IMG/VR virus record: IMGVR_UViG_3300020576_004326
Span: 22,919 to 86,918 of that record
DNA: 64,000 nt
Source: a virus
Taxonomy: Duplodnaviria; Caudoviricetes
Direction: 5' to 3' (one strand)
Made by a program: the position numbers and the translations under genes. How positions within the stretch are numbered: the stretch's first letter is position 1; each line of letters starts with the position of its first letter. The notes below the pieces were generated by a model. That model saw nothing but the letters and a program-made list of their open reading frames with translations, was not told where the DNA came from and searched no databases. This document shows positions 15,233 through 41,707 of the stretch, piece after piece.

Positions 15233-16372
15233 ATGAATAACGACGGTACGCGAATCGAGGCTCCCTACTGCCTGTTCCTGGCAGACGCCACCGACCCCAA
15301 GGCGATCAAGACGGCGTCGGGCCTCGTAGAGTGGGCTCCGGATCGCGTGGCGTGCGAGTACGGCCTGCCGGGCTGCACCGTGTCCGCGGGAGTCCCGCGC
15401 GCCGAGACGCTCAACGAGGCGGTCGAGAAGTACGGCGCCAAGACACTCGTGGTCGGCGTCGTCACCAACACGGGAGACACGCTGCCCGCTCCCTGGAAGA
15501 AGGCCTTCCGCCTGGCCATGACCGCCGGCCTCGACGTCGCGAGCGGGATGCACGACAGGCTGTCCGACGACGCCACCCTCGTCCACTATTCGATGAACAC
15601 GGGCACCCAGCTTCACGACTTTAGGTACACGCCCAAAGAGTACAAGATCGGCAAGGGCGTCCCGCGCCCCGGCATCCGCGTCATGGTCGTCGGCCAAGAC
15701 TGCAACATCGGCAAGAAGTACACGTCCGTCGCGCTCACTCGCGCGCTCGTCAACGCCGGCGTAGACGCCTCGTTCCGGCCCACCGGCCAGACTGGCGCGC
15801 TTATCGCGGAGGGCGAGCGCAGCGTCGTGGTGGACACCGTCGTGTCCGACTTTCTGACGGGAGCCGTCGAGTGGCTGTGCCCGGCCGCGGCGCCCGACCA
15901 CGTCGACGTGGTGGAAGGGCAGGGCTGCCTGTGGAGTCCCGGCAGTGGGCAGCTAGTCGTCTCGCTCATCTACGGCAGCCAGCCCGATTTCTTGGTGATG
16001 TGCGTCGATCCCCCGCGCACGAAGCTGCGCGGCCTCGACTACGAGGTTGTCGACCCCGTGTTCGATATAGAGTCGAATCTGCAGTTCGCGCGGCGCGTCA
16101 ACCCGCACGCGAGGCTCCTCGGCATTTCGGTGAACCTCTCCCACGTTCCGCTCCACGAGACTGCCGCCGTCATGGCAAAGTACGACGTCGTAGCCGGCTG
16201 CTTTCGCGGAAGCATCGGCAGTAAAGATTTCGTGCCGCGAGCGTTCGACCCCAACGACGCCGTCTCTATGTCGCGCGCCGTGTCGGCCGTGAAGCTGCTG
16301 GCGGAGCAGAACGCCGCGGGCAACCACCGCAACGTCTCCGACACGAAGTTCATGTCGGCGAAGACTTTCTGA
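15233..16372 (+). CDS. DUF1611 (DgcN-like) protein, paralogue A
   Basis: DVASGMH, VGQDCNIGKKYT, PTGQTG, VEGQG, GSQPD motifs typical of DUF1611. Confidence 0.85.
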   Translation: MNNDGTRIEAPYCLFLADATDPKAIKTASGLVEWAPDRVACEYGLPGCTVSAGVPRAETLNEAVEKYGAKTLVVGVVTNTGDTLPAPWKKAFRLAMTAGLDVASGMHDRLSDDATLVHYSMNTGTQLHDFRYTPKEYKIGKGVPRPGIRVMVVGQDCNIGKKYTSVALTRALVNAGVDASFRPTGQTGALIAEGERSVVVDTVVSDFLTGAVEWLCPAAAPDHVDVVEGQGCLWSPGSGQLVVSLIYGSQPDFLVMCVDPPRTKLRGLDYEVVDPVFDIESNLQFARRVNPHARLLGISVNLSHVPLHETAAVMAKYDVVAGCFRGSIGSKDFVPRAFDPNDAVSMSRAVSAVKLLAEQNAAGNHRNVSDTKFMSAKTF

Positions 16373-16384
16373 GAGGACGATACT

Positions 16385-17485
16385 ATGATGCTCCCGCACG
16401 AGTGCACCCCTCCCTACATCCTGTACCTGGGAGACTCGACCACGCTCGACGAGATAAAGACGGCGACCGGCCTGCTCAAGTGGCGCCCCGAGTGGTGCAC
16501 GGGGTTCTACGCGGAACCCGAGTGCACCGTGACGCACGCGATGGGCAACCTCCCCCGCATATCTACCGTGCAGGAAGGCGTCATACTGGGAGCCAAGACG
16601 TTCGTGATCTGCTGCGTCGCGCGCGGCAGCAAGCTATCGCCGGCGTGGTACGAGACGGTGGCCAACTGGATCAGTTCGGGCAGCGGCATCGACGTAGCCA
16701 CCGGAACGCACGAGCGCATCAAGTCTCACCCCCAGTACGCCAAGCTGGCGGAGGCATCGGGCTGTCGCCTCGTAGACTATCGCCACCACGACACGCAGTA
16801 CCCCCTGTGTCGCGGCGAGAAGCGCTCGGGTCTGCGCCTGCTCACTATCGGTCACGACGGCTGCGTCGGTAAGAAGTACACGTCGCTCGCCCTGTGTGCC
16901 GAGCTAAAGCGGCGCGGCATCGCTCACAAGTTCGCACCCACCGGACAGACGGGCGCGCTTATCGCAGGCGCCGAAGACAGGTCGATCGTGATCGACTCTA
17001 CCGAGGCCGACTTCGCCTCGGGCGCCGCGGCGTGGCTCACGCCTCCCGCCGAAGACGCGGGCTTCTGGTACGTGATCGAGGGGCAGGCCAGCCTCTTCCA
17101 CCCCGGCTGGGCTCCCCCGAGCCTCGCTCTACTCTACGGCAGCCAGCCCGACGCCCTCGTGTACTGCATCGACCCGACCCGTCGGCTGCAGCTAGGCACC
17201 GCCCTCCGAGTCGTCCCGATGGCTGCAGAGATCGACCTGAACCTGCAGCTGGCGCGGCGCGTCAATCGCGGCGTCGCTCCCTACGCCGTGAGCGTGAACA
17301 TGGCGAACGTGCCTCCCGAAGACTACGACCTCGTCATGGCCGGGGTGCGCGACGAGGTATCGCAGCTCAGCTACGACGTGTCGGTGATCGACCCCAATCG
17401 ACCCGACACGTTCTACCACCTCATCGAGCGCATGGTGAGCCGCTCGGTAGAGGTGCGAACGCGCGCGGCGGAGGTGCCCGAATAA
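16385..17485 (+). CDS. DUF1611 (DgcN-like) protein, paralogue B
   Basis: IGHDGCVGKKYT, PTGQTG, IEGQASLFHP, GSQPD motifs. Confidence 0.85.
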   Translation: MMLPHECTPPYILYLGDSTTLDEIKTATGLLKWRPEWCTGFYAEPECTVTHAMGNLPRISTVQEGVILGAKTFVICCVARGSKLSPAWYETVANWISSGSGIDVATGTHERIKSHPQYAKLAEASGCRLVDYRHHDTQYPLCRGEKRSGLRLLTIGHDGCVGKKYTSLALCAELKRRGIAHKFAPTGQTGALIAGAEDRSIVIDSTEADFASGAAAWLTPPAEDAGFWYVIEGQASLFHPGWAPPSLALLYGSQPDALVYCIDPTRRLQLGTALRVVPMAAEIDLNLQLARRVNRGVAPYAVSVNMANVPPEDYDLVMAGVRDEVSQLSYDVSVIDPNRPDTFYHLIERMVSRSVEVRTRAAEVPE

Positions 17486-18456
17486 TGGCGTCGATGGACC
17501 TCAAGCTGTGCAAGTCTTCGCTCTCTGTCGGAGCCAAGATACGCGACCTGTTCGAGCGCCACATGCGCGAGAAGCTGGGCAAGAAGAGCAAGCGCGTCGC
17601 TCTCTTGCTGTCGGGGGGCATCGACTCGGCGCTGGCGGGCATAGCGGCCACGCGCGCGGGTCACGAGGTGCACGCGTACACCTTCCGAATGGCAGGGCAG
17701 CCCGGCTTCGACGACAAGTGGGCCGAGCACACCGCCAAGGTGATGGGGTGGAAGTGGGAGCTGATAGAGCTTCCCACCGACCTCTACGCCGTGGCGGGCC
17801 TCGTGCCGATGATGCACGACGAGTTCGCCTGTCGCCTCAAGCGCAACTACGAGTGCCTCTGGCCTCTCCTGTTCTCCTACGCGAGCATCGAAGAGAAGTT
17901 CGTCGTGTCGGGCCTCGCGGCAGACAACCACTACATGCCGAACCGCAAAGCCCAGAAGCTGGGGGCGCGCGACGACAAGGGCGTATTCGACGAGCTCCGA
18001 TCGGGGTCGTTCGCCAAGCTGCACGAGGGCGGCATAGACGCGCTGTCGCGAGACTACAACCCCGCTAACCTGTGGATGAACCTGCAGGCCGAGCGGCACT
18101 TCGGGAAGGTAGGAGTAAATCCCTACCTAGAGCGCGAGCTGTACGACCTGCTCCTCCCGTTCGACTGGAACCAGCTGCACAAGCCTCGGCAGAAGCACCA
18201 CCTCGTGGGTGCGTACCCCGAGGTGATGAAGTACGTGGGGCACCGTAATCATCGTAACTACCAAAACGCCGGGATAGACACGCACTTCGAGAAGCTCCTC
18301 GAGACGCCTCTCAACATCAAGAACTCGCGCCGCGCGCTAGACATGTACGCGTCGTGGCGACACCACCCCAAAGATTTCGCGAAGGCGCTGTCTAAGGTGC
18401 GCGACAAGTACGCGGCGAAGGCCGAGAAGCTGCTTACGCGCAAGAGCAAGAGGTAG
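17485..18456 (+). CDS. Asn-synthetase-like PP-loop ATP-dependent amide ligase lacking a glutaminase domain (CmoY-like candidate)
   Basis: LLLSGGIDS PP-loop, VVSGLAAD (cf. AsnB VLSGEGAD), NPYL (cf. VPFL); ATG overlaps the upstream TAA. Confidence 0.75.
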   Translation: MASMDLKLCKSSLSVGAKIRDLFERHMREKLGKKSKRVALLLSGGIDSALAGIAATRAGHEVHAYTFRMAGQPGFDDKWAEHTAKVMGWKWELIELPTDLYAVAGLVPMMHDEFACRLKRNYECLWPLLFSYASIEEKFVVSGLAADNHYMPNRKAQKLGARDDKGVFDELRSGSFAKLHEGGIDALSRDYNPANLWMNLQAERHFGKVGVNPYLERELYDLLLPFDWNQLHKPRQKHHLVGAYPEVMKYVGHRNHRNYQNAGIDTHFEKLLETPLNIKNSRRALDMYASWRHHPKDFAKALSKVRDKYAAKAEKLLTRKSKR

Positions 18457-26573: not shown

Positions 26574-27404
26574 ATGAGTAAGAAGATAGCAGGAGTTTAC
26601 CTTATCAAGTGGGCCCAAAGCGATAGTTTCTACATAGGGTCTTCAATTAACGTCGTCCGTAGAATAAGCGAACACTTTCACGCGCTGCGCCGAGGAAAGC
26701 ACTATAATATCGCGCTAACTGCCGCCTACAGAAAGTATGGCGACACCATGACGTACTACGTCTTACAGACTATAACCAGCAGAAGGGCTTACCATAAGCC
26801 GTACGTTCTGCACGATCTAGAACAAGATTGGATAGACGACCTCGATCCAAAATACAATAGAACTAATGAAGTTAGAGCCCCATCCAGAGACCCTAGAGTT
26901 GCGCTGCGAATCTCTAGATCGCTTAAGGGTCGCCCGCTATCTACCGAAGCGCGAGAGAACTTGAGCAGAGCCTTAGTAGGGCGTAAATTATCTGCAGATC
27001 ACAAGAGAGCCATATCTAGAGGTCTTATCGGAAGAGAAATGTCTGCAGATACTCGCAGATCTATAGGAAATGCCAATAGAGGAAGAACAGTATTTCCAGA
27101 GCACCGCGATAAGATTAGAGCAGCGCTTACTGGCTACAAGCATACGCCAGAAGCGCGAGCAAATATGAGCTCGGGCCAACGCGGTAAAGTGCTGTCCCCG
27201 GAGCACGTAGAGAAGATACGCAAACGAAATACAGGATCTTACAAACTGTCTTCAGATCAATTGGTCAAGGCACGATCTCTATTCGCAAGATTGAGAGGGT
27301 CTGAGCGCAGCAGACTTTTACGGATAGCAGACGACTTCGGCGTTTCTTTTTCTACCGCAAGAAACGTAGTTCGCATGGTAGGACCATACAGGAGAATAAA
27401 ATGA
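26574..27404 (+). CDS. GIY-YIG homing endonuclease with NUMOD3-like repeats
   Basis: GVYLI...FYIGSSINVVRRISEH; repeated ..H..KIS..L.G units; AT-rich. Confidence 0.88.
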   Translation: MSKKIAGVYLIKWAQSDSFYIGSSINVVRRISEHFHALRRGKHYNIALTAAYRKYGDTMTYYVLQTITSRRAYHKPYVLHDLEQDWIDDLDPKYNRTNEVRAPSRDPRVALRISRSLKGRPLSTEARENLSRALVGRKLSADHKRAISRGLIGREMSADTRRSIGNANRGRTVFPEHRDKIRAALTGYKHTPEARANMSSGQRGKVLSPEHVEKIRKRNTGSYKLSSDQLVKARSLFARLRGSERSRLLRIADDFGVSFSTARNVVRMVGPYRRIK

Positions 27405-28219
27405 AAATTAAAATAAGCCCTAAGACCATGGCGGACTTGAAAGCCGCGAGTTACAACCCTAGGTCGATAACGGATCGACAGCTAGACGCTATGGTCAAGT
27501 CGTACATGAAGTTCGGCGATCTTTCCGGTATTACGATGAACGTCCGTACCGGGAATCTAGTCGGCGGGCACCAGCGCACGACGATCTTCAAGAAGCACGG
27601 CAAGAAGTCGAGCATCGTCAAGAAGCCCTACTCCGACAAGTACGGCACCGTCAGCGTCGGCTACGTAGACGTGGTCGTGAAGAGAGACGGCAACTCGTCG
27701 GTGATCCGCATCCCCTACCGCGAGGTGAAGTGGGACGCAGACACGGAGAAGGCGGCGAACATCGCGGCCAACGCGGCGGGCGGCGACTTCGACCTCGTCA
27801 AGCTCGGCAAGGTGCTCAAGGAGCTGGAGGACCGCAAGTTCTCTATCGAAGACGTCCCGATCGACCCGTGGATGCACCGCAAGTCTATCGCCATGTTCGA
27901 GTCGAACAATCGCCGCGCCGCCGAGGGCGTAGACCAGGACGGCGAGTTCGCCGTAATTAGCCCTGACGCCGTCGAGGCGAGCCTGGAGCACTGCTGCCCC
28001 AAGTGCGGGCACCGCTGGTCGGGCTCTACGAAGGTGTCGAAGGCGTCGGCGGGCAGCGGCCGCACGCGCGCCAAGGGGCCCGCGAAGCGCGTCTCGGTCG
28101 ACAAAGACGCGAAGGTCGTCGGCAAGAAGGGCAAGGTCAGCAAGACGAAGTCGCAGGCCAAGCCCGACCCGAAGCGCAAGCCGAAGGCTGCGACCAAGGG
28201 TAAGAAGGGCAAGAAGTGA
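27401..28219 (+). CDS. ParB/Srx-like N-terminal domain protein with CPKC ribbon and Lys-rich tail
   Basis: YNPRSI, LVGGHQR, CPKCG. Confidence 0.75.
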   Translation: MKIKISPKTMADLKAASYNPRSITDRQLDAMVKSYMKFGDLSGITMNVRTGNLVGGHQRTTIFKKHGKKSSIVKKPYSDKYGTVSVGYVDVVVKRDGNSSVIRIPYREVKWDADTEKAANIAANAAGGDFDLVKLGKVLKELEDRKFSIEDVPIDPWMHRKSIAMFESNNRRAAEGVDQDGEFAVISPDAVEASLEHCCPKCGHRWSGSTKVSKASAGSGRTRAKGPAKRVSVDKDAKVVGKKGKVSKTKSQAKPDPKRKPKAATKGKKGKK

Positions 28220-28954: not shown

Positions 28955-29201
28955 GCGATGGCGAGAGACGACTTGTACGAGGCCCGGTATGGGGTTCGCC
29001 GCTGCTGGTGCGGGAGGAAAGATTGCTCCCGCTGGTGCGTAGGTGACTTCGTGCAGGGCACCATCGAGGCCTCGCTTACCGAGCGCCAGGCCAGAGCCGT
29101 CTCCTTCGTTCTCAACGCCATGTCGGGCGACGACCCCTGCGCGCTCACCGTCACCACCGCAGGCACCACCAAGACCACCACCCTGTAGGAGAGAGCGAGC
29201 G

Positions 29202-29690
29202 ATGTACAAGCCCAAGGCGATATTCACCGTCGGCGCCCCGCGTAGCGGAAAGACTACGTGGGCCAGGCTGTACCAGCAGACTCACGAGCGCACCGCCCTC
29301 CTGTCGCTCGACGATCTGCGTGTAACGCTCTGCGGCTCCAAGCGCGCCTACCACGACGAAGTGGGCGACGATCCCGGACACCCGCTGCGGACTGCACTCA
29401 ACGAGCTGCACGATCACGCGCTATCGTACCTCCTCGCGCGCTGCATGACCGTAGTCGTGCACAACACGCACCTCACGCGCTGGAACATAGATCGGAGCCT
29501 GTGCACGAGCTACGTGCTGCGCGCGGAGACCGAGTTCGTAGTGTTCGACAGGACGATAGAAGAACTTCGCAGTCGCAACGCGTCTTGCCCTCCAGAAGAC
29601 GCCGTACCCGACGGTGTGCTGATGAGAATGCACGACCAGATGCAGAGCGCCGACGCGTGGTGGAGGAGCGTTACTCACCGCACAGCGTAG
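29202..29690 (+). CDS. polynucleotide kinase-like P-loop kinase (AAA_33)
   Basis: VGAPRSGKTTWA, SLDDLR, VHNTHL. Confidence 0.8.
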   Translation: MYKPKAIFTVGAPRSGKTTWARLYQQTHERTALLSLDDLRVTLCGSKRAYHDEVGDDPGHPLRTALNELHDHALSYLLARCMTVVVHNTHLTRWNIDRSLCTSYVLRAETEFVVFDRTIEELRSRNASCPPEDAVPDGVLMRMHDQMQSADAWWRSVTHRTA

Positions 29691-29715: not shown

Positions 29716-30129
29716 GTGCGCTACCGAGAAGATACGAACCGCGTTCAGAAGCGCCTCGCCGCTGGCCAGAAGTGCCCGTACTGCAAGCGTGAGATGCGGC
29801 TAGAGCCCGACCCTGCGTGCGAGCTGTCGCCTACGATCGACCACGTCGTGACGCAGGGCCGCGGAGGAAAGAGCAACCCCGAGAACCTGCTGTGGTCGTG
29901 CAGGCGCTGCAACAACCTTCGCGGTTCTGTTCCCTACGATGTGTTCGTCGCGTTCTCGCGCTACGTGCTGATACAGTTCCCCAACCACCCCGCCGCCTTC
30001 CTCCGAAACGCCCTCCGAGAGTTCGTCTACTGGCTGGCGTTCGCCGCGCTGGGAAAGAAGGACGGCGTGAACCACGCGGTGCGCATGAGCCTGCTGCAGC
30101 TGGCCGGAGACATGGAGAACGCGAAGTGA
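29716..30129 (+). CDS. HNH nuclease (McrA-like)
   Basis: CPYC...TIDHVV..GRGG.SNPENL..SCRRCN. Confidence 0.8.
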   Translation: MRYREDTNRVQKRLAAGQKCPYCKREMRLEPDPACELSPTIDHVVTQGRGGKSNPENLLWSCRRCNNLRGSVPYDVFVAFSRYVLIQFPNHPAAFLRNALREFVYWLAFAALGKKDGVNHAVRMSLLQLAGDMENAK

Positions 30130-31285
30130 GTATGCAGACGACGCTCGACACCACACCTGAGATAGAGAGGCTGTTCGCCGACTGGCGGAGAGCAGTCGAG
30201 AGAGTGACAGAGAACGTATCGGCGCAGAACGTCACTCTTCTGTGCATTCCTCCCAAGTACGCGAAGCACAGTCGCGGGTGGAGGATACACGGTATGACGA
30301 AGCGCCAGTGGCGCCGCGTCCGACACCTCGCTACTATGCATACGTTCGACGACGTGTACCTCGAGAGGTGTCCCGAGTTCACAGAGTCGGGTATGGTAAA
30401 CGTCGAGTTCTCCTGCGAGAATATGACGTCACGGCGTGTGCGGCCGTGAAGAACACCGCCGTACTTGCGGGACTAGACATAGACTTCGCTGCGGTAGAGC
30501 GCGTCGCACAATCTTGGAGAACCGCTATGTGGTTGACGATCGGTGAACTGGTAACGAAATTCGAGAAGGCAGCGGAGCCCGACCGAGAGCTAGACGTGCT
30601 GGCACACGTCGCGCTGTTCGGCGGGTTCGACTTCAACCTGGGTCAGGCCAGCGGCAACGTGGGAGGTATCAAATACTCGACGCGCGGCCTGAACCTCAAG
30701 CAGTTCGTAGAGAAGCACCCCAAGCTGTTTATCGAGGGAGCCATCTTCTACAACGTACCCCAGCTGTCGTCTTCGCTAGAGGCGTGCCACAAGCTACAGA
30801 CGGCTATGTTCCCCTCGTGCATGGTGAGCGGACACTTCGCTCCGACGGGCGGAATATCCCGAGCGCAGCTGGTTCACGTTCGCGGCGTAGCGATCGGTCG
30901 AGAGTGCGCCGCAAGATCGCCCACTCTCGCGTGGGCAGCAGCTATCCTAGCGGCGGCCTCGATAGACGAGAAGGCTGCCCACGACAGGTTCAAGGAGAAG
31001 ATCGATGAAGCGGAGAACGCCCTCAAGGCTCACGGTGGATCGCAGGTCGTTCTTGGCGGGAACCGAGGCGTCGACCCTACTGTCTAGCGTAGCTCTTCCC
31101 GCTACAGCTATACGGCCCGGCCCCCTCAGCGTAACGCTGCCGTCATCAGCTGCAGTACCGCTGGGTACGTCGTTCACGATCAAGTCGCTGGCGGACTCTA
31201 CGTTCGTGCTATACGCAGGAGACAGAAAGATCGAGCTGGGCAAGGCTCAGGCGATCACCGTCCAGAACAGAGAAGGAAACTGGAG

Positions 31286-32152
31286 ATGACCGAAGACGCT
31301 AAGGGCCTGAGCTGCGCGGCTCGTGCCGAACTCCTTAGAGAGACTGTCGATGCCTACCTCGACGCCCACGATCTAGGCACCAGCCTCTCACTGAGAATAG
31401 ACGAATGCTCTTTCGGTCGAGAGGCACTTGCCGCGTGCCTCGAAGAGGCCAAGAGTGCGGGAGACCTCTTCGGCGTCGCCATCGCGACCGAGCTGCTTTC
31501 CCTCCCCGACGATGTTCTGACGGTGGCCTCCGACTGCGGCCTCAGCGCTGCACTTGATCGCTGGGTGGAGGCTACGGAGCCGCAATCTGCGTCGCCGAGT
31601 TTCTCTCTACCGCCGACTAACGGTCTCACGTGGCTTCCGCCCATCCTGCGCTATCACGAGATAGTAGACTCGTTCGAGAGGGAACCCCTTTTCGTAGGCG
31701 ACGAGCTGATAGTAGGCAAGGGGCTGGAGGTAAGCGAGATAATACACCCCGCCGACGACCAGCGCCACCCTGCGTTTGCAATCATAGATTGGTTCGCAGT
31801 CGGTCTGTCGAAGTTCGCAGTTCTCCGTCAGCCTGTCGGCATCGTGCTCCCCTTGCCGAGGAACCATCCCGGAGTAGCCGTCCAAGAATTCTGCGCGACG
31901 ATTCGATACGAGTCGAACCCTATGCTCGGAAAATATCGTCATAAGTTTGCGGCCGTGTACGGGATACTACAGGAGGCTGTTCTACCCTCGAAGTCTACGG
32001 TGGCGACCAAGCCCGTGGCTTTCCTGACTCACCTCGGGTGGTACGACGGCTACGTGCAGTCGATAGGCTGGGACGGAGAGACTAACACGTTCACCGTCAT
32101 CGGCGGAGTACGCAAGCGCGCCAAGACAGAACAGCTGGAGACCGCGCGGTGA
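31286..32152 (+). CDS. hypothetical protein
   Basis: ORF coupled to the downstream transferase (GTGA overlap). Confidence 0.5.
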   Translation: MTEDAKGLSCAARAELLRETVDAYLDAHDLGTSLSLRIDECSFGREALAACLEEAKSAGDLFGVAIATELLSLPDDVLTVASDCGLSAALDRWVEATEPQSASPSFSLPPTNGLTWLPPILRYHEIVDSFEREPLFVGDELIVGKGLEVSEIIHPADDQRHPAFAIIDWFAVGLSKFAVLRQPVGIVLPLPRNHPGVAVQEFCATIRYESNPMLGKYRHKFAAVYGILQEAVLPSKSTVATKPVAFLTHLGWYDGYVQSIGWDGETNTFTVIGGVRKRAKTEQLETAR

Positions 32153-34377
32153 AGCGATATACTGCACTAACGATACCCTCGATACGCAAGATCAACAAGC
32201 TCCCGAAGGCGCTGGTCGGAGCCAGCCTCTTCGCCGGCGGGGGAGGCGCGTCTACGGGAATGAAGCTGGCTGGCATCGACGTGCGCTACGCCAACGAATT
32301 TATCCCCGGCGCCATCGCAACTTACCGCGCCAACGCCAGCAAGTCGACGTTCGTAGACGAGCGCGACATACGCACCGTGCAGCCGTCCGAGATACTGAAG
32401 CACTGCCGCGTGGCGAAGGGCGAACTCGACTACCTCGACGCTTCACCCCCCTGCTTCCCGGCAGGAACTCTCGTTCGCACCAACACGGGGCTAAAGCCTA
32501 TACAGCTTGTGGAGTGCGGAGACTTAGTTCTTACCCACAAGGCGAGGTTTCGCCGTGTAAATAATACTATGTCTCGGCTATACGCCGGCGACATGGTAAA
32601 GATTGCCTGCGTAGGAACTCAAGATACATCTTCGACTCCTGAGCACCCCTTCTTCGTGAAGAAGCGATTGTCACCTACGGCACTGGCAGACCCCGCGTGG
32701 ATAGAAGCTAAGGATGTCTGCAAAGGAGACTACGTCGGCATCGTAGTCGATAAGAAGGCAGAGGTACCCGCATACGACGGATACGTCGAACGATCTGGCT
32801 TTGATCGTGTCACTCGGCAGTTTACGACTGCGACGACTATAAATACTCTGCCTCTGTCAAACCCTAATTTTTGGTACCTCATAGGGAGGTGGCTAGGTGA
32901 TGGTTGGCTTCGATACACCGAAGACTACGCTTCCAAGTTCATAAATCAAGAACTGAAACGCCGAAAGAACCGTTATGGGTTCATAATTTGCTGCAAGGAC
33001 CCAAGCCTAGACGGCGGTATTGAGCTGAAGCAGATCACCAAAAGATTCGATGCTCTAGGGTGGAACTACGGCGTTAAGCGTTACGGTAGCGTAGTTCGCG
33101 TAGTTCTTAAGGGACAAGGCGCAGGTGCGCAGAGCGCGGCTTCTGGAATTACTTCTCCTAAAGAGTTGGTTCTGTGGTGTCTCCGATTTGGCAGAGGAGC
33201 TGCAAACAAGCGTCTTACGGGAGACATTCTTAATCTACCGATACCCCTGTTGAAGGAGGTGGTACGCGGCTACCTTGCCGCTGACGGGCGCAAAAGGGGC
33301 AAAGGGATTTGGGGCTTTAGAGGAACAAGTAACCAACTCATACAGGGGATAGCGTTCGCTGTTGCCAAGATAAGGAAAGTTCCTACCAACAGAGTCGCGC
33401 GTGTTAGGCCTACGAGAAGACCTTCGGTAATAGAAGGTCGGGTAGTATCGTCTAATCCTCAGTGGTACACTGTAACCTGCCCCAAGATTTCTCGTATGAA
33501 AGCATTCGAGTACGACTCGAAATCTCGCATATTATGGGTCCGCGTTCGTGCCGTTTCCTCATCGCCCGTTGCAACTACGGTGTATAACATATCTGTAGGC
33601 GGAGACGATACTTACACCGCAAACACTCTAGCTGTTCACAACTGCAAGATGTATAGTGGAGCCGCGAAGTTCTCGCGCGTAGGTAAGCGTGCAGACGCAC
33701 CGGTGCTGTACAGCGAGAACGTGAAGCAGCGCGTAGACGACCTGTTCGACGAGTTTCTGCGCATCCTCAAGGGCGTGAGGCCCAAGGTATTCGCCACCGA
33801 GAACGTGACGGGCCTCGCCGAGGGAGTGAGCAAGGGCTTCTTCCTCGAGATACTGCAGAAGATGAAAGACTGCGGCTACGCAGTCGAGGCGCGCATGGTG
33901 GACGCCTCGAAGCTCGGCGTACCCCAGCGGCGCATACGCATCGTGTTCGTAGGCGTCCGCACCGACGTGTCTAAGGCAGTCTGCGGGCCCGTGTTCCCCA
34001 AGCCGGGCAAGAAGGTGCTGGCGCTGCGCGACGTGATCCCCGACGCCGCGTTCGTGCAGGAGGGAGCGCGCGGGTGGGGCGACGCGCGGCGCCCCGCGCC
34101 CACCATCGTCGCGGGCGGGCACTCGTTCAACGAGTACTCGCAGCTCTCGGCGGGCGGCTACTACAAAGACGACTCGGGAGACGTGATCAAGTTCACCATC
34201 CCGCAGCTGATCAAGATATTCGGGTACCCCGAAGACTACGTGCTCACGGGCGACTTCAAGATGCAGTGGGAACGGCTCGGTCGATCGCACGTCCCGCTGG
34301 CCGTCTACGCCATCGCGTCTACCATCAAGGACGAGGTGCTCGACCCCTATAATCGAATGAAGAGGAAGAAGAAATGA
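32149..34377 (+). CDS. C5-cytosine transferase, CmoX-like (putative carboxymethyltransferase), intein-containing
   Basis: Motif I FAGGGG, IV SPP|C, VI ENV, VIII QRRIR; motif X ERLGRSH has Arg in place of the usual Asn. Confidence 0.88.
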   Translation: MKRYTALTIPSIRKINKLPKALVGASLFAGGGGASTGMKLAGIDVRYANEFIPGAIATYRANASKSTFVDERDIRTVQPSEILKHCRVAKGELDYLDASPPCFPAGTLVRTNTGLKPIQLVECGDLVLTHKARFRRVNNTMSRLYAGDMVKIACVGTQDTSSTPEHPFFVKKRLSPTALADPAWIEAKDVCKGDYVGIVVDKKAEVPAYDGYVERSGFDRVTRQFTTATTINTLPLSNPNFWYLIGRWLGDGWLRYTEDYASKFINQELKRRKNRYGFIICCKDPSLDGGIELKQITKRFDALGWNYGVKRYGSVVRVVLKGQGAGAQSAASGITSPKELVLWCLRFGRGAANKRLTGDILNLPIPLLKEVVRGYLAADGRKRGKGIWGFRGTSNQLIQGIAFAVAKIRKVPTNRVARVRPTRRPSVIEGRVVSSNPQWYTVTCPKISRMKAFEYDSKSRILWVRVRAVSSSPVATTVYNISVGGDDTYTANTLAVHNCKMYSGAAKFSRVGKRADAPVLYSENVKQRVDDLFDEFLRILKGVRPKVFATENVTGLAEGVSKGFFLEILQKMKDCGYAVEARMVDASKLGVPQRRIRIVFVGVRTDVSKAVCGPVFPKPGKKVLALRDVIPDAAFVQEGARGWGDARRPAPTIVAGGHSFNEYSQLSAGGYYKDDSGDVIKFTIPQLIKIFGYPEDYVLTGDFKMQWERLGRSHVPLAVYAIASTIKDEVLDPYNRMKRKKK
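32452..33642 (+). mobile_element. intein with LAGLIDADG endonuclease (397 aa) at the catalytic PC motif
   Basis: CFPAGT...TPEHPF...LIGRWLGDG...GYLAADG...VYNISV...HN|C; AT-richer codons. Confidence 0.92.
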
Positions 34378-35714
34378 TCGTCGTCAGACTACTGATCATC
34401 TGGGTGATCGTCGGCGTCGTCGTAGTCGCCGGCATCAGCGCCACGCATCCCACCCTGCAGTTCAACGGCCCCGGTCAGGCAGCCAAGGCTGTGATGTTCT
34501 GGCCCATTACGGTGTACGCCGTAATCGCGGGCGACTTAGTCCGCAACCCCGTAGACTGAGAGGTGCACCGTGAAGTTCTTATCGTGCGCGCTTCCTCCCG
34601 TTCGCATCAAGGCCGACTGGACGTACCAGAACGAGCCCGTCGCCGTGAGCGTAGTGCAGGGGCTAAGGCGCTCTCGCGTCAACCACTACTTCGATGAGGA
34701 GGGGTATCCCGCAATAGAGTTCGTGGGGACTGGGGCGAAGTGGGTGTTCGCCGACCTGGCCCAGCGCGAAGCGGCGCTACTCCTACTCATGCGCGGCTCG
34801 GAGCAGCTAACCTCCGAAGACGTCACCTCCGAGGCCACGAAGTGGTCTAAGTTAAACCTAGTAGCTCCTGCGTGCAGTAGCTCTAGCAAGATGCGCGACT
34901 ACCGCGCTTCTCCCGTTCCTCTTACTTCGAGGCCAACATGGTAAACACGTGCCCTGCGTGCGGCAAGCAACTCGTGGTGAACTCGCAGGCTGGCATCGCG
35001 CTGTGCCCCGACTGGCATCACTGGACCAGCAAGCCCACTGCGAAAATCGACGCAGGCGACGACTTGATGATGGCGGAAGCCGGCACGCTCAGCGCGCGGC
35101 TAGCGCTGGAGGCCGACCGCAGCTTCGCGTTCATGCGAGACGCCTGCGCGTTCGCGGGCAAGCCCCCGCAGTCTCTGTTCGCCGCCATCGCCCTAGCGTT
35201 CATCGACTCGCTGGTGCAGCAGTACGAGGGTCGAATGGCCGGCGCGGTACCCGAGGCGGAGAGGCGCGCGTGGATCATGCAGCAGATCGTTTCTACCACG
35301 ACTATGGTGGTCGACATGCGCGTAGGCAAGCTCGAAGAGTCTGGTCTACCCAAGGCCACCGTCAACTAGGAGAAGCGTCATGGCAGATCGCGTCGCATAC
35401 GAGTTCGACCGCTACCTCTACGGATCGAAGGTGGCGGAGGGCGTCACGGTGCACCGGGCCGACTCTTTCGAGGAGGCCACCGTCGTAGCTGCCCGCCTGT
35501 GCGGAGGCCAGCGCGGTACCGTACTCGTCCCCCGCTTCGACACGCTGATGCTCCTGTTCACTAAGCGCGTCGGTCCGTACGCCGCGGTGAAGCCCAAGAA
35601 GGGCGACCAGTGGATGCACCCGATCACGGGGACCGTCTACGTGTTCGACGGCGAGAACTACGTGAGTACGAGCGAGAAGCCTTACGGCACCGACCCCATG
35701 GGCGTGCTGAGCTG

Positions 35715-36326
35715 ATGAGCAAGCGCGCCCTGAACAAGTCGTGGGCCAAGCGGACGGTGGGGTCGGGTCGCAGCAAGCAGTCTCGCGCCAAGATACTCGA
35801 CGGCTACGGGTCTCCTCGCGAGTCGTTCGACGCCCTGGTGCGCGACGGCAGAGAAGAGTTCCCGCTACGCATATGGGAGCCGGCCGCGGGCCGTCACCAC
35901 ATGGTGCGCGCGATGGAGCGCCACGGGCACCGCGTGTACACCAGCGACGTGTACCGCTGGAGCAAGCGCACGCGCACGATCATCGACTTCTTCGCGGCGA
36001 AGCGCGTACCCAAGAGGCACAGGTGCATCGTCACCAACCCACCTTTCTACCTCGCCCAGCAGTTCGCCCAGCACGCAATGACGCTGCTCCCTCCTGGAGG
36101 CCGCCTCTACCTGCTGCTGCGCGTTCAGTGGCTAGAGGGAGTAAAGAGGAAGCGAGAGCTGTTCGACGGGTGCCCGCCCAAGTACGTGTACGTGTTCTCG
36201 TATCGCCTTCCCATGATGCACGCGTTCGACCACGCGGGCAAGAAGATGAAGGGCGGCATGATGGCGATGGCGTGGTTCGTGTTTGTGAAAAATTTTAAGG
36301 GGGAGCCCACGATAAGATGGCTCTGA
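35715..36326 (+). CDS. DNA amino-methyltransferase (N6-adenine or N4-cytosine)
   Basis: WEPAAG motif I and IVTNPPF motif IV. Confidence 0.85.
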   Translation: MSKRALNKSWAKRTVGSGRSKQSRAKILDGYGSPRESFDALVRDGREEFPLRIWEPAAGRHHMVRAMERHGHRVYTSDVYRWSKRTRTIIDFFAAKRVPKRHRCIVTNPPFYLAQQFAQHAMTLLPPGGRLYLLLRVQWLEGVKRKRELFDGCPPKYVYVFSYRLPMMHAFDHAGKKMKGGMMAMAWFVFVKNFKGEPTIRWL

Positions 36327-37012
36327 AACTAGAAGTAAACACGGGTGCTCGTTTTGGCAGATTGCGAGTAGTGCAAGAGATTTCCCGGTCTTCCCCTGGT
36401 CGCCACTTCCTTTGTCGATGTGACTGTGGCAATAAAACGGTTACAACTCTAGCCCGAATGCGGTCAGGCAAGACTCGGTCTTGCGGATGCATTCGCTTAG
36501 AGACTACACGAGCCTTGGGTAAAAAATATGGAGGCAGTGCTCAAAAGCACGGTCTTGCAGGTACTGCTTTATATACGTGTCACAGGTTGATGATGAAACG
36601 TTGCTACGATGTAAGTTATCTTCGGTACGATTCTTGGGGAGGACGCGGCATTCGCGTATGCAGAAAGTGGCACGATCTTCGCGCGTTCGTAGACTGGAAT
36701 AATTCTCTTCCTAAAGAAGAACGATACCGAACCGGCCTCACCATAGAGAGAAGGGACAACGCGAGAGGATATTCTCCGAATAATTGCTATTGGGCAACAA
36801 GACGACAGCAGCAACGAAATCGGAGAGGAAATGTTAGGATAATGTACAGAGGGAAGTTGAGCAGCTTTATGTACGTGTACGAGGACTTGATAGAGCGTAA
36901 GCTGGTTCCTAAAAAGTCGGCGGAGAAGATACGGCGTAGGTTGCGCCAGGGATATAAATTATCCGATATAGTCAAGGGGTTCACCGGCGAGCCGAAGATT
37001 CGGTGGCTGTAG
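36317..37012 (+). CDS. HNH homing endonuclease fused to the displaced MTase C-terminus
   Basis: CRCDCG, WGGRGIRVC, IERRDNARGYSPNNCYW; ends VKGFTGEPKIRWL. Confidence 0.85.
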   Translation: MALKLEVNTGARFGRLRVVQEISRSSPGRHFLCRCDCGNKTVTTLARMRSGKTRSCGCIRLETTRALGKKYGGSAQKHGLAGTALYTCHRLMMKRCYDVSYLRYDSWGGRGIRVCRKWHDLRAFVDWNNSLPKEERYRTGLTIERRDNARGYSPNNCYWATRRQQQRNRRGNVRIMYRGKLSSFMYVYEDLIERKLVPKKSAEKIRRRLRQGYKLSDIVKGFTGEPKIRWL

Positions 37013-37471
37013 GAGATCGCGATGAAGCACGATGAAGAGCTGCGCGCACGCGTGCGCGCCAAGATCGTAGAGTCTCTGCAGAAGATGAGAGACGACACGG
37101 GCCTATACGTCGGCGGCCCCGCGTCGGGCGAAGTTCGGCCCGACGACGACGAGGTAGTGGTCGACGGCCTAGTCGACCTTCAAGAACTCGTGAGCGCCGT
37201 GATCTCGGCGGTGACCGATAAAGACTAGGTGATCCGTGAGCGGGGCGACGTTCATCACGGTACGGCGCAGGGTGGCAGACGTCAGGTTCTTCGAGAACGA
37301 CGTGCTCGTTGCCGTGCTGGGCAGAGACAGGCGCGGCCTGCACCGCCTGCACCACACGCGGGAGTCGTGCCCCGACCTCATCGCTCAGGTAGAGAAGTTC
37401 GTCAAAGACTACACCGACTCTGCCGGTTTCTTTACGGCCCGCGAGGGCGTCCACGTGATTAGGATGAGAGA

Positions 37472-37621
37472 ATGAAGCTCTACACCGCGCTAGACATACC
37501 GACGATGGCCGAGATAAACGCGAAGCGCAAGAAGTTCGTCGGCGCCAGCCTGTTCTCGGGCTGCGGAGGAGCCTCGGTCGGCATGAAGCTGGCCGGCATC
37601 GACGTGAGGTGCGTCGGATGA
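37472..37621 (+). pseudogene. orphaned original 5' end of the second CmoX-like gene (49 aa)
   Basis: MKLYTALDIPTMAEINAKRKKFVGASLFSGCGGASVGMKLAGIDVR; a second copy starts at 38077. Confidence 0.85.
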
Positions 37622-38076
37622 TCTATAGATTACCTGAGATACGAAACAAAGGCGATCATCCATTATATCGCACATGGTACGGAATGCTGCGACGGTGCAG
37701 AGATCACCCTCGCTACATGGGTAGAGTAAGCGTGTGCAAATCCTGGGCCCACCCCGAGAAGGGTTTCTCTGCCTTTGTTACATGGGCTCGAAAGGGTTAT
37801 CGCCCGGGGTTAGAGCTGGATCGTAGGAATAACGACGGCGACTACTCTCCCGATAATTGTCGGTGGGTTACGCACAAGATTAACGCCCAAAACAGAGGTG
37901 ATATAATTTGGGTAGAAGTCGGCGGAAGTCGACAAGAGCTGTTTCGTCTATGGGAAAACAGCTCACGCGTAGTATCCTACAACACAGTAAAACTGCGCTA
38001 TTACAGGGGCTGGGATGTAAAGCGTGCTCTGTCCACTCCCGCAAAACACCCAGGTGCTCCTAAGAGGGTTTCGAAC
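37618..38076 (+). CDS. HNH homing endonuclease, in frame with the downstream transferase
   Basis: LDRRNNDGDYSPDNCRW; ATG overlaps the remnant's TGA; no stop before 38077. Confidence 0.82.
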
Positions 38077-39090
38077 ATGAAGCTATACACGGCTCTCGAT
38101 ATTCCTACAATGCGCGAGATAAATGCGTTACCTAAAACCTTCGTTGCAGCGAGTTTGTTCTCTGGATGTGGAGGCTCATCCGTTGGTATTAAATTAGCTG
38201 GCGGAGACGTGCGCTACGCGTCAGAGTTCGTGCCCATCGCGGCCGACACGTACGCGGCGAACGCACCCGGCACGTACGTAGACCGCAGAGACATTCGCGA
38301 AGTGAAGCCCGAGTTCGTACTCAAGAAGTGCCGCGTGGCGAAGGGCGAACTCGACTACCTAGACGGCTCCCCGCCGTGCAAGATTTTCTCGAAGGCTTCG
38401 CTGCACACGAAGGGCAAGCGAGACGAGACGAACGTCGTGCTGTACTCGGAGGGCATCAAGCAGCGCGTAGACGACCTGTTCTTCCAGTTCGCCCGCCTGC
38501 TCAAGGGCACGCAGCCCAAAGTCTTCGTCGCCGAGAACGTCGAGGGCCTGACGGCTCAGGCCAACCGCCCCTACCTCAACGAGATATTCTCGTCGCTCCG
38601 TAAGTGCGGGTACGAGGTCGAGGCGCGCGTGCTCGACGCCTCCAAGCTGGGCGTGCCGCAGGCTCGCAAGCGCCTCATCTTCGTGGGCGTCCGCAGAGAC
38701 TTGGTGAAGCGCGGGTTCAAGCCCGCGTTCCCGAAGCCCCTCAACCGCTACATCACCGTGCAAGACGTCGTGCCCCACGCCGTTAAGATGAAGTTCGGCG
38801 GCGGTCGCGGCTACATGTCTGCGGCTCAGCCCAGCCAGACGATCACGGCGTCCGACGCCACGACCTACGAGACTGCCGACTTCTCGTGCGGAGCGTACAT
38901 CGAGCTGCCCGACGGGACGCGCCGCAAGTACAAGATCAGCGAGGCGAAGCGCGTCTTCGGCATGCCAGAAGACTTCAAGCTGCTGGGCGACTACGAGCAG
39001 CGCTTCGAGCGCCTCGGTCGCATACACGTGCCCCTATCCGTCTACTACGTCGCCAGCGCCCTGCGCGAGAACGTGCTGAGCAAGCTGTGA
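38077..39090 (+). CDS. second C5-cytosine transferase, CmoX-like
   Basis: FSGCGG, DGSPPC, ENV, QARKR; motif X ERLGRIH; AGAGG upstream of ATG. Confidence 0.88.
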   Translation: MKLYTALDIPTMREINALPKTFVAASLFSGCGGSSVGIKLAGGDVRYASEFVPIAADTYAANAPGTYVDRRDIREVKPEFVLKKCRVAKGELDYLDGSPPCKIFSKASLHTKGKRDETNVVLYSEGIKQRVDDLFFQFARLLKGTQPKVFVAENVEGLTAQANRPYLNEIFSSLRKCGYEVEARVLDASKLGVPQARKRLIFVGVRRDLVKRGFKPAFPKPLNRYITVQDVVPHAVKMKFGGGRGYMSAAQPSQTITASDATTYETADFSCGAYIELPDGTRRKYKISEAKRVFGMPEDFKLLGDYEQRFERLGRIHVPLSVYYVASALRENVLSKL

Positions 39091-39813
39091 AGAAGGCGAG
39101 CAAGACGTTCTACGCCTACTCCGAATACGGAAGATGGGTCGTGTCGGTGTACCACGACGGCGCGCTGTACATGCGCTGCGACCACTCTAGTCGGCAGCTG
39201 TGGGAGAAGCAGGTGCTAGAGCTGCTGGCGGCTGGCTACGAGGAGGAAGAGCGATGACGCTGTACCAGCGATGCATCTCGGGTGAGTGGTACGACGGGCC
39301 GAGCCTACTCGCTTCTATGCTGGCCTTCGTAGACGCGTACGGCATACGCGTAACGGGGTTTCGCGGAACCACGATGACGATCGGGATACCGATCCCGCGA
39401 CTAGTAAGCAGTAAAGTATCCATAGACCTATTCGTTCCTCAACGGCTGCTCGAAGACTTCTACTACGCCAACGGGAGCGCAGTTCTAGGCAGGCGCCCTG
39501 ACATAGAAGAGCTGTCGAAGTTCGTGTCGTTCGCCAACGACGCCTTCACCGCCAATCTCGTCAACGACCACCTACGACAGCGGGAGCAGACGCGTGTGAT
39601 GAACGGTGGACCGTCTCTGCGCAGCTCTCTGCTATTCGCTTACACTGGAGCCTACTCAGAAGTGCTGAGCGAACCCATGTTCGAACTGCACGAACTCGAA
39701 CTGGCGGAGCTTACGCGATGAACAGGAGGTCGCCCTTGAAAATTTTTCTGGCGGAGGTGCCGTAGTAAATTCATAGTAGTCTCCAGCATAGAATCGAAAA
39801 AGGAGTAGCTATC

Positions 39814-40614
39814 ATGAGCAAATTGGTACAAGACGAAAAGCCGCAGAATACGAACGGCGATAGCCACATAGCAGATCCTAACAGAAAATGGGAGTTCGAT
39901 AAAGACGTCACAGACGCATTTTCCATGATGATATCCTCGTCAATACCCGACTGCCGGAACATGCGCAAGTGGGTGCAGTCGCTGGCCTCGAATCACCTGC
40001 GCACCCGGGTAGACCCAGAACACATGCGCGGCGTCACCTACGCGCGCACTGGGAGCGCGCTAGACATCGGCGCCAGCCGCGGAGACGCCGTTGCCGACCT
40101 CGTCGCCGACTACCCGATGTGCCGGTTCCACCTCGTCGAGATAAGCAAGCCGATGGTGACCGTGCTGCACCAGCGCTTCGCCGACTCGAACAACGTGAGG
40201 GTCGTTGAGGGCGACATGTCGGAGGAACCCACGCTCGTCAACTCGTCGCGCCGAGGGCACGACCTGGCGATGTCGATCCTGACGCTCATGTTCGTCCCGA
40301 TCGAGTGCCGCCAGCGCGTGGTCCAGGCCGTGTACGACTCGCTGCTGCCGGGTGGCATGTTCATCGTGGTGGAGAAGACTATGGGCGAGACTGTCGTGGG
40401 GCAGGAGCTCCTCGTCGCCCAGTACCACGCGTTCAAGATGGCCTCGGGATACACGGCAGAGAACGTCGAGCGCAAGCGCCTCTCGCTCAAGGGGTCGCTC
40501 GTTCCTACGAAGCCTTCGTGGGTGGAAGAGATGCTGCGAGACGCGGGCTTCGTTCACGTAACGCGCTTCTGGCAGGCCCTGCAGTTCGTAGGGTGGGTTG
40601 CTTTCAAGCAGTAA
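39814..40614 (+). CDS. cmoA: carboxy-S-adenosylmethionine synthase, CmoA-like
   Basis: WEFDKDVTDAFSMMI..SIP, LDIGAS.G, LTLMFV, LLPGGMFIVVEK, FKMASGY..ENVERKR, AGF...FWQ.LQF; colinear with E. coli CmoA as recalled. Confidence 0.85.
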   Translation: MSKLVQDEKPQNTNGDSHIADPNRKWEFDKDVTDAFSMMISSSIPDCRNMRKWVQSLASNHLRTRVDPEHMRGVTYARTGSALDIGASRGDAVADLVADYPMCRFHLVEISKPMVTVLHQRFADSNNVRVVEGDMSEEPTLVNSSRRGHDLAMSILTLMFVPIECRQRVVQAVYDSLLPGGMFIVVEKTMGETVVGQELLVAQYHAFKMASGYTAENVERKRLSLKGSLVPTKPSWVEEMLRDAGFVHVTRFWQALQFVGWVAFKQ

Positions 40615-40625
40615 GGAGAAACGAC

Positions 40626-40913
40626 ATGAACTTCGGACAAGCTCAAGAGGTACTAGAGAGTGGCGGCCGCGTCGCTCGCGCCGGCTGGAACGGCAAGGGC
40701 ATGTGGCTCTCTCGCGTAAGCGAGAACTGGAGCGGGTCGCTGAGGTGCAGAGAGAATCTGCCGCCCAACTTCGCGGGGTACCTCCCGTTCTACGTGATGT
40801 ACACGGCCGACGGCAAGCTCGTGCCGTGGCTCGCCAGCCAGACCGACCTGGCCGCCACCGACTGGGTGGTGCTAGTCGACGGAACAGTCGCGCACGAGGC
40901 AGTCTCGTCATGA
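40626..40913 (+). CDS. DUF2829-family protein
   Basis: MNFGQA...GGRVARAGWNGKGMW...PWLASQTDL.ATDW. Confidence 0.85.
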   Translation: MNFGQAQEVLESGGRVARAGWNGKGMWLSRVSENWSGSLRCRENLPPNFAGYLPFYVMYTADGKLVPWLASQTDLAATDWVVLVDGTVAHEAVSS

Positions 40914-41707
40914 GTGCCGCCGCAGAAACGGCGCAGCCGTCCCTCGACGATACCCACCTCGTAACGAAGCTCAGCGAGGCGGCTCTGCTGATGAAACCCG
41001 TGGTAGAAGCGGCCGGCGTAGCCGAGACGCCGCTGTTCTCTCCGTGGAGCCGGATGGTGCACGGCACGTCGCCGCTAGTAACGAACGTCGAGCGCTGGTA
41101 CCACGGGCCGCGACACCCCGCGCGCATGTGGCAGGCGTACCTCGACCTCTTCCAGCCGCGAGCGTTGGCGGAGCAGAGCCAAGACGTCGCCCGCTTCTGC
41201 ATCTTCCACGACATCGTCTACGGCGTGGGGCGACCGGGGGAGGTCGAGGCGTACTCTGCTAACGAGTATGCGGTGTACTGCGCCGGAGAGAGTGATCCTC
41301 CCTCCCCCCGTCGCCTGGCCCGCGTCTACGAGGCGATACTGCGCACTGCAGACTACGCGAAGCACACCCCGTACATCGACCACTTCGTCGCGGTGTGCCT
41401 CGACCTCGACCTGTACGAACTGGCTACGGATCGCTACTGGGTGAACTCGGTGCTGATCCGCCGCGAGATGAGCGCGTTCTCCGACGATCAGTTCTTGGCG
41501 GGCCGCGTCGCGTTCCTCAAGTCGATGCTCCTTCGCCCCCAGCTGTTCTACCTGTTGCCTCAGGATCACGAAGACGCCGCTCGTCGCAATCTGGCGGCCG
41601 AGCACGACGCGCTCGTGGCGTACGGAGAGAAGCGGCTCCCCTGGGAGAACTGGCCGCACAACCTACCCGACTTCGTAGACCGCGCTTCGGTTCCCGATAG
41701 CGTCTAA
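40910..41707 (+). CDS. HD-superfamily phosphohydrolase (COG4339-like)
   Basis: RWYHGPRH, FHDIVY, LDLDL, IRRE...F.AGRVAFL. Confidence 0.75.
   Translation: MSAAAETAQPSLDDTHLVTKLSEAALLMKPVVEAAGVAETPLFSPWSRMVHGTSPLVTNVERWYHGPRHPARMWQAYLDLFQPRALAEQSQDVARFCIFHDIVYGVGRPGEVEAYSANEYAVYCAGESDPPSPRRLARVYEAILRTADYAKHTPYIDHFVAVCLDLDLYELATDRYWVNSVLIRREMSAFSDDQFLAGRVAFLKSMLLRPQLFYLLPQDHEDAARRNLAAEHDALVAYGEKRLPWENWPHNLPDFVDRASVPDSV

Follow-up and report, generated by a model that had tools for sequence, protein, structure and literature searches.

The 64,000-nucleotide stretch of DNA analysed here (the window; bases 22919–86918 of the 86.9-kb IMG/VR virus contig IMGVR_UViG_3300020576_004326) appears from its sequence to be part of a wastewater jumbo phage resembling Pseudomonas phage PaBG that carries the published CmoA–CmoX pathway of DNA modification, a reading to which we assign a probability of about 0.8. 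The window encodes a homologue of CmoA, the synthase of carboxy-S-adenosylmethionine (carboxy-SAM), and two paralogous transferases, here termed cmoX-1 and cmoX-2. Their sequences support the assignment of both as CmoX-type, carboxy-SAM-dependent cytosine-C5 carboxymethyltransferases fed by the phage CmoA (Table 1), through the nearest solved relative, the position of a single arginine, the other cofactor contacts, an Arg199 equivalent in CmoA and the absence of a CmoB gene from the contig. The pathway was described in phage S-B43 by Yang et al. (Nat Commun, Dec 2025; PMC12783734), where CmoA makes carboxy-SAM, CmoX writes 5-carboxymethylcytosine (5cxmC) at GC sites with carboxy-SAM as the sole accepted cofactor, and CmoY ligates glycine to the CmoX product; the same study collected 5,615 candidate CmoX proteins from phage databases including IMG/VR. 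Given a published pathway with thousands of candidates, the core finding adds one more member to a system already known, and what is new here is the pair of paralogues, the matched alleles with and without an intein and with and without HNH homing-endonuclease elements, and a link to proteins of the DUF1611 family.

Both transferases match PF00145, with E values of 3.8e-33 for cmoX-1 and 1e-45 for the 493-residue open reading frame (ORF; 37609–39090) that contains cmoX-2, and both also score as TIGR00675; cmoX-1 in addition matches phrog_36001 (5e-125). In a single-sequence search of the PDB with cmoX-2, the CmoX of S-B43 (SpCmoX; 8YF3) was the best match at E 9.3e-47, with HaeIII at 4.6e-17, and a profile search gave 6.3e-84 for SpCmoX and 2.8e-39 for HaeIII. 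Motifs I, IV (SPPC), VI (ENV) and VIII (QxRxR) align in both copies, in cmoX-1 after removal of the intein, where the successive spellings are SPPC, ENV, QRRIR and, in motif X, ERLGRS. A first-pass annotation of the window, made from the DNA alone, had described motifs I, IV, VI and VIII as intact in both transferases; all four are present, but the Pro-Cys of motif IV in cmoX-1 is split by the intein. Its reading of motif X, ERLGRSH in cmoX-1 and ERLGRIH in cmoX-2, was correct for both ORFs.

The arginine of motif X occupies the position at which SpCmoX holds the carboxyl group of its cofactor. In SpCmoX, R350 contacts this group, and F25, E47, F48, D69 and the SPPC motif are among the cofactor and catalytic contacts (PMC12783734). 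A pairwise HMMER alignment to 8yf3 places R315 of the cmoX-2 domain on R350, and a MAFFT alignment with SpCmoX, PaBG gp177 and gp048 of Dickeya phage AD1 places the motif-X arginine of both copies there; in the same alignment both copies share with SpCmoX residues F25, E47, F48, D69, S95-P96-P97-C98 and R350. Of the 115 nearest homologues at least 90% keep the arginine. A profile built from them can be aligned along its whole length with M.HhaI (E 4e-32) and M.HaeIII (E 3e-39), and in these alignments the arginine falls on the asparagine of the GN dipeptide, which is N304 in HhaI. The placement of an arginine at the motif-X asparagine, also claimed in the first-pass annotation, is thereby confirmed against both SpCmoX R350 and HhaI N304. 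A basic residue at this asparagine is known to switch the cofactor to carboxy-SAM in the N374K variant of M.MpeI.

Over its whole length the CmoA homologue aligns with E. coli CmoA (4gek; E 2.8e-14), and it matches phrog_4752 (5.8e-53). Its R222 corresponds to chain residue R213 of 4gek, that is, R199 of E. coli CmoA, which binds the carboxylate of carboxy-SAM through a salt bridge (PMC3663124). The first-pass annotation had placed a CmoA-like ORF, with a KR pair corresponding to the carboxylate-binding arginine, about 0.7 kb downstream of the second transferase gene, and the 723-nt gap and the position of R222 on R199 bear this out. The protein is 37–42% identical to PaBG gp178 and 28% identical to SpCmoA, which is experimentally active. 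CmoB (PF08003) was not found on the 87-kb contig.

Several observations weigh against the assignment of the window to the CmoA–CmoX pathway. TIGR00740 covers CmoA over its full length (2.3e-23), but its 83.1 bits lie below the equivalog cut-off of 193.3 (NCBIfam), and NF011995 similarly gives 61.8 bits with a cut-off of 285; with regard to the TIGR00740 shortfall, the proven phage enzyme SpCmoA is, at 28% identity, equally divergent from the window CmoA. Some SAM-contact residues of E. coli CmoA, at the N90 and N132 positions, are missing from the window protein. The ligase that would act on the CmoX product is encoded 22 kb upstream of cmoA and is only 29% identical to SpCmoY, the CmoY of S-B43. 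The contig represents about 33% of a genome, so that CmoB or other ligases may be encoded elsewhere. Finally, the first-pass annotation had looked to an alignment with CmoX, M.HhaI and M.MpeI to fix the position of the arginine, and this succeeded for the first two, whereas M.MpeI (4dkj) aligned only over 67–238, leaving its C-terminal part with N374 unaligned, so that the equivalence of N374 is taken from PMC12783734.

From the observed homology, conserved residues, selection, gene context and empty-site alleles we infer the chemistry, target motifs and amide step of the following pathway. CmoA would convert SAM and host prephenate to carboxy-SAM, and the two CmoX paralogues would flip cytosines out of the double-stranded phage DNA. 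The motif-IV cysteine would attack C6 of the flipped base, with the motif-X arginine holding the carboxylate of the cofactor, and the carboxymethyl group would be transferred to C5 to give 5cxmC, each of the two copies acting on a different short motif. The CmoY-like, ATP-dependent ligase would most likely convert 5cxmC to an amide, which the two DUF1611 proteins might tailor further. The presumed benefit is that the modified phage DNA is shielded from host nucleases.

Table 1 Features of the window discussed in the text (positions in the window)
Feature	Position	Strand	Description
Two DUF1611 (DgcN-like) paralogues	15233..17485	+	PF07755, PF17396; directly upstream of the ligase gene
CmoY-like AsnB-type PP-loop amide ligase	17485..18456	+	323 aa, no glutaminase domain; PF00733 1.2e-9; SGGIDS motif
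ParB-like protein	27401..28219	+	tblastn PaBG gp176 1.7e-32, AD1 gp047 9e-27
cmoX-1 precursor (predicted CmoX-type transferase)	32149..34377	+	742 aa; N-extein 32149–32451, intein 32452–33642, C-extein 33643–34377; spliced product 345 aa
Intein of cmoX-1	32452..33642	+	397 aa, LAGLIDADG-like motifs; between Pro and catalytic Cys of motif IV
Small NPPF amino-methyltransferase	35715..36326	+	203 aa; phrog_799 6.7e-49; dN/dS 0.20
HNH homing-endonuclease element 1	36317..37012	+	phrog_374, phrog_3377; GC 0.48; 13 codons before the end of the NPPF methyltransferase gene
Orphan native 5' fragment of cmoX-2	37472..37621	+	46 codons; upstream of HNH element 2; from reading of the sequence
HNH element 2	37618..38076	+	phrog_3377 2.7e-33; runs in frame into cmoX-2 without a stop
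cmoX-2, predicted CmoX-type cytosine-C5 carboxymethyltransferase	38077..39090	+	337 aa; 8yf3 best PDB match
cmoA, carboxy-SAM synthase homologue	39814..40614	+	266 aa; starts 723 nt after cmoX-2

The two transferases are 51% identical overall, a figure that rises to 60% in the core and drops to 32% in the recognition domain. This divergence of the recognition domains is consistent with the first-pass idea of two target sequences and suggests a different short motif for each copy. Related contigs used for comparison were L012 (from ENA), L014 (from Logan) and a contig of run X14. Both cmoX copies are under purifying selection: the ratio of nonsynonymous to synonymous substitution rates (dN/dS) is 0.105 for the exteins of cmoX-1, measured against the intein-free L012 allele, and 0.131 for cmoX-2 and 0.152 for cmoA, measured against relatives. 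L012 keeps both cmoX copies together with cmoA, and a single cmoX is found in PaBG, AD1, S-B43 and a complete 43-kb IMG/VR phage. The two copies fall within one clade of 11 rows (SH-aLRT 86) of a 120-sequence tree but are not sister sequences, as proteins of other phages are nearer to cmoX-1.

Two copies with the same specificity are conceivable, if doubtful; the second would then serve as a backup should a selfish element inactivate the first, or would be expressed at a different time. Such redundancy would fit the common clade, the invasion of each copy by a different mobile element, and the short recognition domains, which are as expected for very short motifs like the GC motif of SpCmoX. 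Set against it are the difference in identity between recognition domain and catalytic core, the separate branching of the copies within their clade, and the combination of purifying selection on both with their joint retention in L012, which is less expected of pure redundancy. The reading in which each copy writes its own short motif is the one followed here.

The ligase gene and its neighbours bear on the identity of the base in the virion. The ligase matches S-B43 CmoY by tblastn (3e-27, 29% identity) and is 37% identical to AD1 gp018. Among 50,697 phage records no more than 58 hold a homologue of the ligase; their genera are all also represented among the CmoA matches, and the proven SpCmoY is one of these homologues. 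Homologues of the DUF1611 proteins are rarer, being limited to 34 of the same 50,697 records, every one of them from a jumbo phage of Erwinia or Dickeya. AD1 has its DUF1611 gene flanked by cmoA and the ligase gene, an arrangement with which the coordinates of the remaining matches agree. From gene context alone, we infer a role for DUF1611 in tailoring. The ParB-like gene lies about 4 kb upstream of cmoX-1; its homologues directly precede cmoX in PaBG and AD1, and ParBc is associated with CmoX contigs (PMC12783734).

In virion DNA of S-B43 the amide is present and free 5cxmC is absent (PMC12783734). Together with the CmoY-like ligase on the contig, this makes it probable that modification proceeds beyond bare 5cxmC, so that of the first-pass prediction of 5-carboxymethylcytosine DNA the assignment of carboxymethyltransferases is supported by the sequence and the nature of the end product probably has to be revised. 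The virion base is rather likely to be an amide of 5cxmC, and this amide is perhaps tailored further, which we regard as a tentative suggestion. Equally tentative is the full scheme in which the two CmoX copies write two short motifs and the ligase and the two DgcN-like, P-loop DUF1611 proteins turn 5cxmC into an undescribed cytosine hypermodification; if true, tailoring would continue past the published glycine amide with a third and a fourth step. DUF1611, inteins and paralogues are not mentioned in the CmoX paper (PMC12783734).

It is less probable that bare 5cxmC is the final base and that the ligase and the DUF1611 proteins serve another purpose, for example in nucleotide or amino-acid metabolism. 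A CmoY-type gene adjoins cmoA or cmoX in S-B43, PaBG and AD1 and does not do so in the window, where the ligase gene instead stands within a block of nucleotide-metabolism genes (dCTP deaminase-like, kinase-like and thyA genes), as a metabolic role would predict. This is countered by the narrow distribution of the ligase homologues among genera with CmoA matches, by the ligase gene that directly follows cmoA and DUF1611 in AD1, and by the S-B43 virions, which hold the amide only.

The intein of cmoX-1 has all the splicing residues of a class 1 intein, with Cys1 (CFPAG...), a block B that reads TPEH and a terminal His-Asn (...VHN) followed by the +1 cysteine, and it also contains two LAGLIDADG-like motifs. 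It matches Intein_splicing, Hint_2 and TIGR01443; the TIGR01443 score for the C-terminal region is above its cut-off, and the Pfam splicing-domain scores fall below the gathering cut-off. Pfam finds no LAGLIDADG or other endonuclease domain within it, the LAGLIDADG-like assignment being made from motifs. The GC content of the intein is 0.46–0.56, compared with about 0.63 in the flanks. In L012 the cmoX-1 gene (positions 328–1365) encodes 345 amino acids and its alignment to the window, with 85–92% identity in the flanks of the insertion site, breaks exactly at 32454/33643; the length and the exact junction identify it as an intein-free allele whose length equals that of the predicted spliced product. 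AD1 likewise has its CmoX interrupted by an intein between these Pro and Cys residues, and PHROG 36001 groups long forms of this kind. Because the +1 cysteine is the catalytic nucleophile itself, we propose that the cmoX-1 product is active only once the intein has been spliced out. Inteins are on record in N6 and N4 methylases of mycobacteriophages; for C5 transferases no published description of an intein was found.

The second copy has been invaded at its 5' end. Residues 1–156 of the 493-residue ORF are the HNH endonuclease, and the transferase proper begins at the ATG at 38077, which is preceded at a distance of 8 nt by the Shine-Dalgarno-like sequence AGAGGG; the transferase would be produced from this ribosome-binding site and start codon, or as a fusion to the HNH protein. 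GC content is 0.48–0.51 across the element and up to about 38200. The first 46 codons of cmoX-2 are present twice within 37472–38220, as the GC-rich orphan copy (37472–37609) upstream of the element and as an AT-rich, recoded copy from 38077 onwards. The HNH-free cmoX-2 of L014 resembles at its 5' end the orphan copy (83% identity) more than the recoded one (71%), from which it follows that the element brought its own replacement 5' end. The same insertion is present in L012, where the orphan copy lacks an ATG; between the window and L012 the HNH part is 92–94% identical, compared with 77–87% for its flanks.

These insertions raise the question of whether one copy is an inactive relic, either because cmoX-1 no longer splices or because the HNH-fused cmoX-2 is not made in active form, which we consider improbable. 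The intein without a Pfam endonuclease domain, its splicing-domain scores below the gathering cut-off and the HNH ORF without a stop before cmoX-2 are what one would expect of a relic; they are opposed by the full complement of splicing residues, the dN/dS values of exteins and cmoX-2, the recurrence of the intein-bearing allele in independent metagenomes, and the start signals that cmoX-2 has of its own. A redundant or dead copy is thus possible but disfavoured by the selection data. That both enzymes are ordinary 5-methylcytosine methyltransferases, with CmoA serving the transfer RNA (tRNA) modification uridine 5-oxyacetic acid (cmo5U) through a host CmoB, would accord with PF00145 and TIGR00675 scores like those of any Dcm, with the tRNA gene present in the window and with a CmoA score under its equivalog cut-off, but is made very unlikely by the residue pattern (Asn-to-Arg at the exact cofactor position, the other SpCmoX contacts kept, and as nearest solved relative SpCmoX, which in its wild-type form refuses SAM) and by the lack of CmoB on the contig, itself incomplete, and is further opposed by the occurrence of CmoA in most CmoX contigs (PMC12783734).

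Between the two transferase genes lies that of a small NPPF methyltransferase, which is probably an ordinary orphan N6-adenine DNA methylase. The possibility that it is an N6-carboxymethyltransferase was rejected, as its family occurs in CmoA-less Listeria, Staphylococcus and Rhizobium phages; no N6-carboxymethyltransferase is known according to PMC12783734. Within 36280–37012, HNH element 1 gives the NPPF gene a recoded, AT-rich 3' end (...GEPTIRWL), and the end of the element itself consists of native codons (...GEPKIRWL). It is absent from L012, in which the end of the gene matches the tail of the HNH ORF. In neither of the two HNH-like ORFs, those of elements 1 and 2, does Pfam find an HNH domain, and their assignment comes from PHROGs and motifs only.

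Further mobile elements surround the locus. A 1.06-kb insert (31040–32100), absent from L012 and from the run X14 contig, splits the gene upstream of cmoX-1; an ORF in it (31286–32152) has no family match and is fused in frame to the last ~14 native codons of the split gene. A free-standing HNH endonuclease gene (29716–30129; PF01844, 3.6e-8) lies 2 kb upstream of cmoX-1 and is adjoined by an AAA_33 kinase-like gene (29043–29690). The thymidylate synthase gene (22292–24392) is split after ...LYQRS by about 1.1 kb containing a GIY-YIG endonuclease (23123–23911), an arrangement that resembles the T4 td intron with I-TevI, and a search of Rfam at the gathering threshold found no group I intron in it. 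Three homologues of the Vsr/MutH-like endonuclease gp174 of PaBG are encoded on the contig, one at 62522–62809 (- strand) and two upstream of the window, contributing to an exceptionally large number of nuclease-type mobile genes. The region that separates cmoX-2 from cmoA (39395–39721) is variable: the X14 contig replaces 325 nt by 507, and L012 has five small genes there.

Directly after cmoA lies a small DUF2829/Tad2-like gene (40622–40874), 44% identical to PaBG gp184 and with PF11195 matching the L012 homologue, which possibly encodes an anti-defence protein. All four of the runs compared have one base fewer at 40622, and the window may contain an indel at the start of this gene. The ORF 40598–41707, which follows cmoA, was considered as a new tailoring enzyme and rejected: its only family match, to a 'phosphohydrolase' PHROG, is weak, it shows an HD-like motif and ~100 initial residues that seem to be read in the wrong frame, and nothing ties it to the pathway.

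The genes of the window are nearly all on the + strand and its GC content is about 0.63. CheckV estimates a completeness of 33% for the contig, which corresponds to a genome of roughly 260 kb. For the genes studied, the nearest cultured relatives are the jumbo phage PaBG and an Alexandravirus-like group of Erwinia and Dickeya jumbo phages. Near-identical DNA is present in wastewater, activated-sludge and freshwater metagenomes from about ten studies, and the same gene order across 32406–38358 was found in independent assemblies from two other studies. The region was also recovered in three metatranscriptome runs, as contigs only, which possibly derive from DNA and provide no evidence of transcription. 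A megablast search with 32149–40614 gave zero matches among the 50,697 phage records, and a pattern scan of IMG/VR returned only three loci, distant at 41–45%; the close relatives surfaced solely through a protein database.

With this locus, a high-GC lineage of PaBG-like wastewater jumbo phages joins the newly described carboxymethylcytosine systems. It offers a natural pair of paralogues with divergent recognition domains in one genome, on which the specificity of CmoX can be addressed, and matched intein-plus and intein-minus alleles in which the cysteine at the splice junction is the catalytic nucleophile, on which the relation of splicing to catalysis can be. The link between DUF1611 and the amide ligase may point to further tailoring steps. 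Annotations such as 'DNA cytosine methylase' and 'tRNA methyltransferase' hide the chemistry of such genes, and the DNA of such phages may resist restriction digestion and distort nanopore base calling.

Compared with S-B43, the window has the same set of a carboxy-SAM synthase, an Arg-type C5 transferase and an AsnB-like ligase, with the carboxy-SAM contacts and SPPC kept, although identity is only 33–37% for CmoX, 28% for CmoA and 29% for CmoY. S-B43 has one CmoX, whereas the window has two, with an intein, an HNH element and shorter recognition domains. The tight cmoA-cmoY-cmoX operon of S-B43 likewise contrasts with the ligase gene of the window, which stands 22 kb off in the company of two DUF1611 genes, and with the additional ParB-like gene.

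The closest cultured relative of the locus is gp176–gp180 of PaBG, with 49.5% identity between cmoX-2 and gp177, 37–42% for CmoA and 43% for the ParB-like protein; PaBG is a jumbo phage, and the window contig is 33% of a genome by CheckV. The PaBG genes are labelled ParB-like, DNA cytosine methylase, 'tRNA cmo5U34 methyltransferase' and asparagine synthase, and have been annotated but not studied. PaBG differs from the window in its single CmoX, in lacking an intein, an HNH element and DUF1611, and in having all of these genes adjacent.

AD1 and the Erwinia Alexandravirus-like phages (gp016–018 and gp047–048) share with the window a CmoX intein at the same Pro|Cys site. In AD1 the gene order is cmoA-DUF1611-AsnB-like ligase, with ParB directly before cmoX. 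Unlike the window, this group has a single CmoX and a single DUF1611, at identities of 43–47%, and the AD1 intein is only distantly similar to that of the window (32% over the whole precursor). The M.MpeI N374K variant resembles the window enzymes in its basic residue at the motif-X asparagine, but is engineered and CpG-specific and has a lysine rather than an arginine. With M.HhaI and M.HaeIII the window enzymes have in common the fold and motifs I, IV, VI and VIII; those methyltransferases have an asparagine (GN) where the CmoX family has an arginine (GR).

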